Shown one piece after another: positions 29,518-34,250 of a stretch of 64,000 nucleotides of DNA; position 1 is the stretch's first letter, and the number at the start of each line of letters is the position of its first letter. Source of the DNA: Microcoleus sp. Its GTDB lineage: Bacteria; Cyanobacteriota; Cyanobacteriia; Cyanobacteriales; Microcoleaceae. The stretch is from contig JAYFMW010000026.1 of the NCBI GenBank assembly GCA_042408215.1, positions 162,020 to 226,019 of the forward strand, read 5' to 3'. A model generated the notes under the pieces. The model did no database searches. It saw only the letters and a list, made by a program, of their open reading frames with translations, and had not been told where the DNA came from. The translations under genes and the position numbers were made by a program.

Positions 29518-29955
29518 ATGAACAAAACTTACGTCCCTACTCAAGACTCCCTAGAGCACAAGTGGTACGTGGTCGATGCCGCCGACCAACGGCTCGGCCG
29601 TCTGGCCACTGAAGTTGCCACGTACCTTCGCGGTAAACACAAACCGACTTACACTCCTTCTATGGATACTGGCGATTTCATAATTGTCATCAATGCCGAA
29701 AAGATTGCTGTTACTGGCAAAAAACGCACCCAAAAAATCTATCGTCGCCACTCTGGAAGACCGGGTGGGATGAAAACAGAAACTTTTGCCAAATTGCAAG
29801 CACGTTTGCCTGAAAGAATTGTCGAAGAAGCGATTCGGGGAATGCTGCCTCACACTTCTCTGGGCAGGCAACTGTTTACTAAGCTGAAGGTGTACGCTGG
29901 GCCTGAGCATCCGCACGCAGCTCAAAAACCAGAAGAGTTAGTCCTTCAAAAATAG
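29518..29955 (+). CDS. rplM: 50S ribosomal protein L13, C-terminus replaced by an insertion (145 aa)
   Basis: W.VVDA, LGRLA, YTP..DTGD, KLKVYAG..HPH.AQ. Confidence 0.96.
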
Positions 29956-30197
29956 GAAATCTCAGAAAAAATACTCTCGTTCAAATCACTACTTACTTAT
30001 GCAAAAACCACGCAACAATAGTAGTAGAAGATTTAAATATTTCTGGGATGTTGAAAAACCACAAACAGAGATTTGAATGCAGCGATTAATTTGTCACGTT
30101 TGGCTAAAGCGTGAAAGCTTACTGAGGGATAACCGCTCCCATGCTCCCGATGAAGTAAGAAGCAAATGTCTAGGCTTGTCTGGTATTTGTATAGCAG
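29938..30197 (+). mobile_element. Internally deleted TnpB-bearing IS remnant (IS607-like) with right end
   Basis: Translates [39 protein letters not shown], then RDLNAAINLSRLAKA* in a shifted frame (TnpB RuvC II/III motifs); hairpin-rich tail ending TATAGCAG. Confidence 0.85.
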
Positions 30198-30233
30198 TTA
30201 ATTGTTCACACGATTCCGGGAGGAAATGAGTAA
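30198..30233 (+). other. Stranded native 3' end of rplM ([11 protein letters not shown])
   Basis: In frame with rplM codon 140 if 29938-30197 is removed; its TAA overlaps the rpsI ATG. Confidence 0.85.
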
Positions 30234-30643
30234 TGCAAGCAACAGATACCGGCCGCGCTGTGTACTGGGGTACCGGCCGCCGCAAGTGTTCGGTAGCACG
30301 GGTACGTTTGGTTCCCGGCACTGGCATACTGACAGTCAATGGTAAAGAGGGGGATTTGTACCTGCAATTCAACCCAACTTATTTAGCACTCGCTAAGGCC
30401 CCTTTGGAAACTTTGGGTCTGGAAAATGAGTACGACATTTTGGTGAAAGTTGAAGGCGGCGGGTTGACAGGCCAAGCTGATTCGATTCGCTTGGGTGTGG
30501 CTAGAGCTCTGTGCCAATTAGACCCGGACAACCGCAAACCTCTCAAGATTGAGGGGTATTTGACTCGTGACCCACGGGCTAAAGAGCGGAAAAAGTACGG
30601 TTTGCGGAAGGCTCGCAAGGCTCCTCAATACTCGAAGCGGTAA
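30233..30643 (+). CDS. rpsI: 30S ribosomal protein S9
   Basis: [32 protein letters not shown]. Confidence 0.98.
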
Positions 30644-33083: not shown

Positions 33084-33440
33084 GTGACTAATACTGTGGA
33101 CGCAGAAGCTAGGAAGAAACTGAGCGAAGTTGTGAAGCTAGCCCGTGGCGACCTGAGTTTTAGCGCTTTTGGTAGGCTATTGGGAGTCTCTGGGTCTGCC
33201 GTTCAGTATTGGGAAAAGGGGCAGGTACTCCCGGATACGAAAAATTTGACTCAGATTGCGGCAAAAGCGGGCTTTACAATGGAAGAGTTGATGGCTCATC
33301 TCGAAGGTAAGCCAATGCCGGAACCTGTTAATACCAACGAGCTACTGAAGAAAATTCAGTGTATGCCGATGAGTGAGTTGGCAGTGATTGGTAGAGCTGT
33401 GATGGATAGGCTCGCGGCGGCGGCTGAGTCGTCTGGGTAA
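33084..33440 (+). CDS. XRE-family HTH regulator (type A, copy 1)
   Basis: S..AFG..LGVS..AV..WEKG...P. Confidence 0.85.
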   Translation: MTNTVDAEARKKLSEVVKLARGDLSFSAFGRLLGVSGSAVQYWEKGQVLPDTKNLTQIAAKAGFTMEELMAHLEGKPMPEPVNTNELLKKIQCMPMSELAVIGRAVMDRLAAAAESSG

Positions 33441-33501
33441 GTAGAGTTGATGTATCTGTTCGTAAGTAGACTGGTAGGTACGATCGCATAGCTTTTAAGT
33501 T

Positions 33502-33849
33502 GTGAACATCCAAAATAGACAAAAACTCAGTGAAATCATCAAAACTGCTCGTGGAACAATGAGTCAACGAGCGTTTGGTAAGCTTTTAGGCGTTTCTGCG
33601 ACTGCTGTTCAGCTTTGGGAAAGGGGCGATACGGTTCCCGATACCGAAAACTTGGGTAAGCTCGCAGCGAGAGCCGGCTATACTCTGGAAGAGTTTCTCA
33701 GCTTTTTGGATGGCAATCCAGTCTCGCAACCACCAGAAATTAACGATATTGTCAAAAAAATTCAGTTTTTGCCTCTGAGTCAGGTGGCGCTAATTGCTAG
33801 AGCTGTAGCCGATAGATTCGCTGCGTCGGCTGAGGCTGCTGGAGAATGA
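33502..33849 (+). CDS. XRE-family HTH regulator (type B, copy 1)
   Basis: MSQRAFGKLLGVSATAVQLWERG. Confidence 0.85.
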   Translation: MNIQNRQKLSEIIKTARGTMSQRAFGKLLGVSATAVQLWERGDTVPDTENLGKLAARAGYTLEEFLSFLDGNPVSQPPEINDIVKKIQFLPLSQVALIARAVADRFAASAEAAGE

Positions 33850-33893
33850 ATATGAGGCAAATTTATCTGTAAACTAGGACTTGTGTTGATCTG

Positions 33894-34250
33894 GTGACTA
33901 ATACTGTGGACTCAGAAGCTAAGAAAAAACTGAGCGAAGTTGTGAAGCTAGCCCGTGGCGACCTGAGTTTTAGCGCTTTTGGTAGGCTATTGGGAGTCTC
34001 TGGGTCTGCTGTTCAGTATTGGGAAAAGGGTCAGGTACTCCCGGATACGAAAAATTTGACTCAGATTGCGGCAAAAGCGGGCTTTACAATGGAAGAGTTG
34101 ATGGCTCATCTCGAAGGCAAACCAATGCCGGAACCTGTCAATACCAATGAGCTGCTGAAGAAAATTCAATGTATGCCGATTAGTGAGTTGGCAGTTATTG
34201 GTAGAGCCGTGATGGATAGGCTCGCTGCTGCTGCTGAGTCGTCTGGGTAA
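33894..34250 (+). CDS. XRE-family HTH regulator (type A, duplicate)
   Basis: Three aa differences from 33084-33440; upstream 25 bp also duplicated. Confidence 0.85.
   Translation: MTNTVDSEAKKKLSEVVKLARGDLSFSAFGRLLGVSGSAVQYWEKGQVLPDTKNLTQIAAKAGFTMEELMAHLEGKPMPEPVNTNELLKKIQCMPISELAVIGRAVMDRLAAAAESSG

Follow-up and report, generated by a model that had tools for sequence, protein, structure and literature searches.

How does a cyanobacterium carry transposon DNA inside the one gene that encodes its ribosomal protein L13, and could that insertion still be undone? The question is raised by the rplM-rpsI locus of a Microcoleus sp. contig, contained in a window of 64,000 nucleotides (the whole stretch of DNA that was analysed). 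We find that the insertion is real, precisely mapped, and rare, a single event in a single lineage, and that it is explained by known IS607 biology. The insert is probably a tolerated relic of an IS607-family element, stuck in place, which has replaced the tail of L13.

The rplM-rpsI locus

The gene rplM occupies positions 29518–29955 of the forward strand and encodes a uL13 of 145 aa with the C-terminus KPEELVLQK*. Codons 1–140 are native, while codons 141–145 (LVLQK) and the stop codon derive from an insert of 260 bp (29938–30197) located after codon 140. The new stop codon, TAG at 29953–29955, lies 15 nt into the insert, at the start of a tnpB piece and out of the tnpB frame. On the same strand, positions 30198–30233 encode the stranded native tail, [11 protein letters not shown], the TAA of which shares its A with the ATG of rpsI at 30233. 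The rpsI gene (30233–30643, forward strand) is intact, encodes a uS9 of 136 aa, and overlaps the stranded tail by this one base. When 29938–30197 is removed, a stop-free frame of 151 aa (140 + 11) results and the overlap with rpsI is back. The sequence AGTTA occurs at both insert junctions (29936–29940 and 30196–30200). A reading of the locus from its sequence alone (hereafter, the sequence-only reading) had placed the rplM stop inside a TnpB-like remnant and had described the stranded tail, the TAA/ATG overlap, the two AGTTA copies, and the 151-aa sum; all of these were confirmed. A search of the whole assembly, with a completeness of 99.98%, returned one rplM match.

Three features near the insertion were observed in passing. 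A 50-codon ATG frame (30077–30229) begins in the insert, crosses the right junction, and terminates 3 nt short of the rpsI ATG; it might in principle restore coupling, but it shows no clear ribosome-binding site or other indication of use, and it is open in another copy of the element family too. The spacer between truA and rplM consists largely of runs of short tandem repeats. At 33084–34250 there are three tandem small genes (118, 115, and 118 aa), which by eye resemble helix-turn-helix regulators, the first and third being nearly identical.

Identity of the insert

The inserted DNA is what remains of an IS607-family element at a canonical DGAG site. It matches four longer TnpB elements of its own genome (copies C10, C13, C20, and C30) in two pieces with 86–95% identity, and the plasmid search gave one record, a Nostoc plasmid copy of the element at 86.7%. 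In an alignment to L034 (1276 bp), the family copy nearest to it, the relic corresponds to positions 1–9, then 826 to approximately 945, and then 1144–1276, which implies two deletions, of at least ~0.8 kb and ~0.2 kb. The first of the resulting parts, all on the forward strand, is the first 9 bp of the left end (29938–29946), which differs from the L034 left end by one mismatch, at the first base, and reads L-V-L in the rplM frame. The second is an internal tnpB fragment without a start of its own (29947–30066), corresponding roughly to codons 236–275 as counted from the stop; it includes the VEDL motif, holds the rplM stop, and is 86–93% identical to family copies. The third (30065–30197) comprises the 3' end of tnpB, an omega-RNA-like scaffold with three predicted stems from 30094, and an intact right end in GCAG, which stops where the family right end stops, at 30197. 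This structure bears out the sequence-only proposal of an insertion sequence that jumped into rplM, gave it a new C-terminus, and then shrank.

To define the insertion site, left ends of the family were sought by an internal motif. This yielded 36 distinct hits, of which 34 were true left ends and 2 were not. All 34 left ends follow GAG (preceded by A in 17, T in 11, and G in 6); the search pattern used to retrieve many of them itself required GAG, and the unforced sets gave 12/12 relatives' loci and 4/4 own-genome copies. In the window, the target motif AGAG (29934–29937, forward strand) fits the family consensus DGAG and ends in the AG core dinucleotide; it is derived from the host and is found in insert-free relatives too, where the empty site reads GAG/TTAATT. 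Of the 34 copies, 31 have C and 3 have A as the first base of the left end, and none has T. Thus AGTTA, which the sequence-only reading took for a meaningful 5-bp repeat, was ruled out as a target duplication: only the AG is shared by mechanism. The change from CTA to TTA at the start of the left end is silent in the rplM frame. IS607 elements are described as making no target duplication and as having a dinucleotide common to element and target (PMC6188088), and AGGAG is the motif recognised by other IS607 TnpBs (PMC11061315).

The assignment to IS607 is as a derivative. Copy C30 shares its ends with the relic and carries an undamaged gene for a 216-aa TnpA, the serine-recombinase transposase of IS607 elements (NF033518, 197 bits; cutoff 110); the dinucleotide is shared without duplication; and tnpB precedes the right end. 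The relic itself holds two tnpB fragments, no TnpA, and no whole TnpB. Copy C20 encodes an unbroken TnpB of 358 aa, which scores above the cutoff for NF040570 (289 bits) and below it for NF038280, IS607_TnpB (258.9 bits; cutoff 350), while copies C10 and C13 appear frameshifted. In the autonomous copy on C30 (L159, G000:C30:352800-357500), a group II intron with an RT-maturase of 571 aa splits tnpB. Independent mini-elements of the same family, of 318, 529, 529, and 527 bp, were seen in relatives (L032:1435-1753, L038, L041, and L043). They restart in tnpB at L034 positions 855–859, near the 826 of the rplM relic, and L032 likewise has just the final 127 bp left, the deletion points thus being recurrent; unlike the rplM relic, these minis retain ~60 bp of left end.

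Presence of the insertion in the genome

The exact 145-aa protein was found on no contig other than that of the window, and the junction patterns gave no second record. The right-junction pattern had no hits in metagenome contigs, and the left-junction pattern had 18 hits in metagenomes and 23 in genomes, all lacking both L13 and the element, in collections that may omit very near genomes. Among the matches listed for 78 other genomes of the genus, none had rplM joined to the insert; their best E was 1.9e-61, compared with 2e-225 in the genome of the window. Such a solitary record could arise if a chimeric join in the assembly had put transposon sequence into rplM. The junctions, however, match the family rules exactly, in the DGAG target, the AG core, the left-end start, and the right-end stop. 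Moreover, the relic differs by 5–14% from every copy in its own genome and its deletions are unique, so there is no source copy for a mis-join. Sequencing reads point the same way. An insert-free allele could account for no more than 836 of the 1121 words (0.746), a share that rises to 0.815 if all family words seen elsewhere are added, whereas two runs from two studies contained 0.95 (X1) and 0.93 (X2) of the words, above both ceilings; one of them may be the source sample. Twelve other runs (X3–X14) had shares of 0.69–0.83, around the insert-free ceiling, including 0.72 for X11, which is from the same sample as X2; these count neither for nor against the insertion. An assembly artefact is therefore scarcely credible.

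It could also be that the insertion allele is real and has not segregated, with wild-type rplM persisting on other chromosome copies or in other cells and the assembler reporting only the allele with the insert. Cyanobacteria are polyploid, and insertions into their essential genes often fail to segregate. The strong conservation of the lost tail and the contamination of the assembly, given as 2.55%, also speak for a mixture. Against it, no insert-free junction exists anywhere in the assembly, and the two deletions and private substitutions suggest a long residence, which would be hard for a harmful allele kept beside the wild type. We regard such a mixture as improbable.

The L13 tail in relatives

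Next, we consider what the insertion removed. Of 24 genomes drawn from the same genus, 23 had a match, and in all 23 insert-free loci L13 is 151 aa long, carries a TIPGG tail, and has a stop overlapping the rpsI ATG. Cyanobacterial L13 proteins have about 151 aa and a tail with TIP, as the sequence-only reading noted. The check it had called for, an alignment to relatives, was run, and none of the 23 loci ends in LVLQK, an outcome in its favour. The stranded tail is identical to the tail of the closest relatives, and the nearest named homologs of the protein are from Microcoleus and Tychonema. Among the 119 nearest homologs, no tail is as short as this one; T145 is present in 119, I146 in 113, P147 in 117, and G148 in 114, and synonymous variation is present.

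Wider draws gave a similar picture. With the 151-aa query, 134 of 140 other genomes of the family matched and 134/134 reached residue 148–151, one through a stop; this genome alone stops at 144. Of 301 genomes drawn across the class, 298 matched; among the matches listed, the 150 rows other than this genome reached 148–151, three through a stop. The TIPG tail is thus under selection, and its loss may carry a fitness cost.

Shorter tails were surveyed in 31 cyanobacterial genomes, most of them chosen as weak or odd matches rather than at random, and two have shorter L13 tails: G140, ending in QNPVLLNS*, and G220, ending in QKPEAINL*. In the latter, which belongs to another cyanobacterial family, a TAA at codon 144 is followed by an in-frame stranded VIPSS (L134, G220:C1:58900-59950). 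This is an apparent nonsense loss of the same tail, seen in one assembly. In two further assemblies, rplM appears in two pieces through a frameshift (G250:C81, L151/L152; G383:C69, L149/L153), possibly through sequencing errors. The rplM-rpsI spacer is ~100 nt or longer in several other cyanobacteria, so the stop-start overlap is not universal.

A probable course of events

Herein, we describe how the locus may have come about if, as we consider probable, the insert is a tolerated and stuck relic. An IS607-family element with TnpA and TnpB would have integrated at AGAG, between codons 140 and 141 of the sole rplM gene. By analogy with the chemistry of the family, whose target site and ends are both observed here, crossover would have taken place at the AG core, leaving no target duplication. 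The left end happens to read L-V-L in frame where relatives read L-I-V, so that the hydrophobic positions 141 and 143 would have been kept and the TIPG tail lost. Of the 119 homologs, 114 have L at position 141 and every one has I, V, or L at position 143; the insert supplies L141 and L143. A left end of the L034 type would give LVLS*, and the commonest left end, present in 12 of 21 full elements, LVPS*. The 145-aa L13 is probably made and built into ribosomes. Two later deletions would have reduced the element to its 260 bp, removing the transposase sites of the left end, so that the relic could no longer be excised.

The cell probably tolerates the truncated L13 because its functional core is spared. 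The L13 domain is present in full (PF00572 1–119 of 119, at residues 14–132), and TIGR01066 matches with 210 bits (cutoff 93) up to position 139 of 141. The 142-aa L13 chains of solved ribosomes align up to query residue 141–142; since the 145-aa product is longer than these bacterial L13s, the damage appears mild. Hence the sequence-only view of an essential gene that has been split was right about the insertion and overstated its damage. Much the same is true of the broken rplM-rpsI coupling that it proposed. The stop-start overlap is indeed lost, but rpsI keeps a GGAGG (30219–30223) inside the stranded tail, 9 nt upstream of its ATG; this is a putative Shine-Dalgarno sequence from which rpsI would be translated without the overlap, and the harm is thus mild. 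No promoter or terminator-like site was found in the insert by a promoter and terminator scan, the overall results of which were at chance level. Structure predictions of the 145-aa protein and of a 151-aa L13 had pLDDT values of 38.8 and 45.9, too low for use. The uL13 passages of 10.64898/2026.07.03.736309 are silent on this tail.

Insertions of transposons in the last codons of essential genes are tolerated, as is known from Tn-seq practice. The rplM insertion resembles these in that the core domain is intact and C-terminal residues are replaced. It differs in being natural, in lying in a ribosomal-protein gene, and in affecting a tail conserved across most of the cyanobacteria sampled.

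Excision and splicing

The sequence-only reading also proposed that precise excision from DNA or RNA would restore the wild type. TnpA of C30 might act in trans to excise the relic, or the mRNA might be spliced as in an IStron, and either process would yield the native 151-aa protein. The AG cores agree at both ends, an intact cognate TnpA is encoded in the genome, and excision of IS607 elements is described as scarless (10.1101/2023.11.20.567912). Furthermore, the stranded tail is the same as in the closest relatives, as if it were still in use; its conservation has a simpler cause, however, in that the tail is short, possibly recently stranded, and carries the GGAGG of rpsI.

The ends of the relic argue against both processes. 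In CboIStron, full excision is reported to need 40 bp at the left end and 60 bp at the right, the loss of two binding motifs abolished excision, and any deletion in the 581-bp region of left end and intron abolished splicing (10.1101/2023.11.20.567912). A TAGACAA-like motif, repeated at both ends of the family's elements, is the likely TnpA site. The right-end piece of the relic (30065–30197) has three such motifs on the minus strand, one of them altered, and none was found on the plus strand of the insert. A mobile mini-element would have several TnpA-binding motifs at both ends, while the 9-bp left end of the relic has none. Likewise, an IStron would have a group I intron core at its left end, where the relic has 9 bp before the tnpB sequence, leaving no room for one. 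An Rfam search of the insert with E up to 5 gave one chance snoRNA hit and no intron or omega-RNA match. With a 9-bp left end without the motif and without an intron, excision or splicing is unlikely despite the TnpA available in trans. Restoration of the wild type is formally possible, and we consider it very improbable that it rescues L13.

A putative guide RNA in the operon

A further reading adds to the tolerated relic and does not exclude it. The operon transcript would give rise to an omega-RNA that, with the TnpB of C20, cuts wild-type rplM at AGAG followed by the 20-nt tail, so that reversion is prevented and sister chromosomes receive a copy of the insertion. The putative guide is the first part of the stranded tail (30198–30217). 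TnpB cutting of empty sites and omega-RNAs acting in trans have been described or proposed (PMC10055086; 10.1101/2023.11.20.567912), and protein-less elements that use TnpB in trans have been proposed (PMC10055086). All 30 pairs of the predicted family fold are kept in the relic, where two A-to-G changes in the last stem give G-U pairs, and the TnpB of C20 is unbroken. In addition, the site formed by the TAM and the guide occurs nowhere in the assembly; the one exception is the right end of the element itself, where CAG stands instead of GAG. Self and non-self would be distinguished here as they are in CboIStron, by TGGG versus TCGG there (10.1101/2023.11.20.567912).

The fold itself is less decisive. 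In the last 126 nt of 16 family copies, which are kin, three stems were predicted with 99% of 480 cells paired, and covariation was 0.096 versus 0.062 in shuffled alignments (0/500 as high), again among related copies. Nevertheless, two-sided changes occur in only 2 of the 30 pairs, a number reached by 355 of 500 shuffles of these kindred sequences, and the single sequence folds weakly better than its shuffles (z −1.70, 12/200). The lack of an Rfam match, a deletion that stops 133 bp from the right end, and the identity of only 87% between the right ends of C20 and the relic also weigh against an active guide. We consider it unlikely that the relic is guarded in this way. The more specific proposal of a selfish guide RNA in a ribosomal operon, which TnpB in trans would free from the mRNA with the stranded tail as guide, seems distinctly unlikely. 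If it were true, wild-type rplM arriving by transformation or on a sister chromosome would be cut and converted, amounting to a gene drive on an essential gene. TnpB processing beside the rpsI GGAGG, which lies 1 nt past the 20-nt guide, could then also set the output of S9.

Comparison with known systems

IS607, IS1535, and ISC1926, as described in PMC6188088, share with the family of the relic a serine-recombinase TnpA and a TnpB in full copies, a shared dinucleotide, the absence of a duplication, and end motifs. A purine-rich target ending in GAG is a further likeness, the TnpB of ISFba1 having the TAM AGGAG (PMC11061315). In contrast to the IS607 elements described there, the core here is AG with a DGAG target rather than GG, and the rplM copy lacks TnpA and a whole TnpB. 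CboIStron is likewise a TnpB-family element lying in sense within a coding sequence, with a guide that fits the empty site and a right end that differs from the TAM at −3 (10.1101/2023.11.20.567912). The rplM relic differs from it in having no group I intron: its host gene survives by the position near the end of the gene and the conservative tail read from the left end, not by splicing. Like the PATE-like minis presented in PMC10055086, the relic is short and non-coding, has a right end and a possible omega-RNA, and would depend on proteins in trans. The relic is of IS607 rather than IS200/IS605 type, however, and is probably immobile, its left end being lost.

Implications

No case of rplM with TnpB, or of Microcoleus with IS607, was found, by title or the opening of the abstract, in a literature search outside of which most subscription journals lay. 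The locus offers a natural truncation of a conserved L13 tail for which no described role was found, and so a convenient way to test the function of TIPG. It also points to an intron-free route by which elements may enter essential genes, namely landing near the 3' end with a left end that is read as a conservative tail. If the guide RNA proves active, TnpB would here, in a clean natural example, keep an insertion within an essential gene although the element itself can no longer move.
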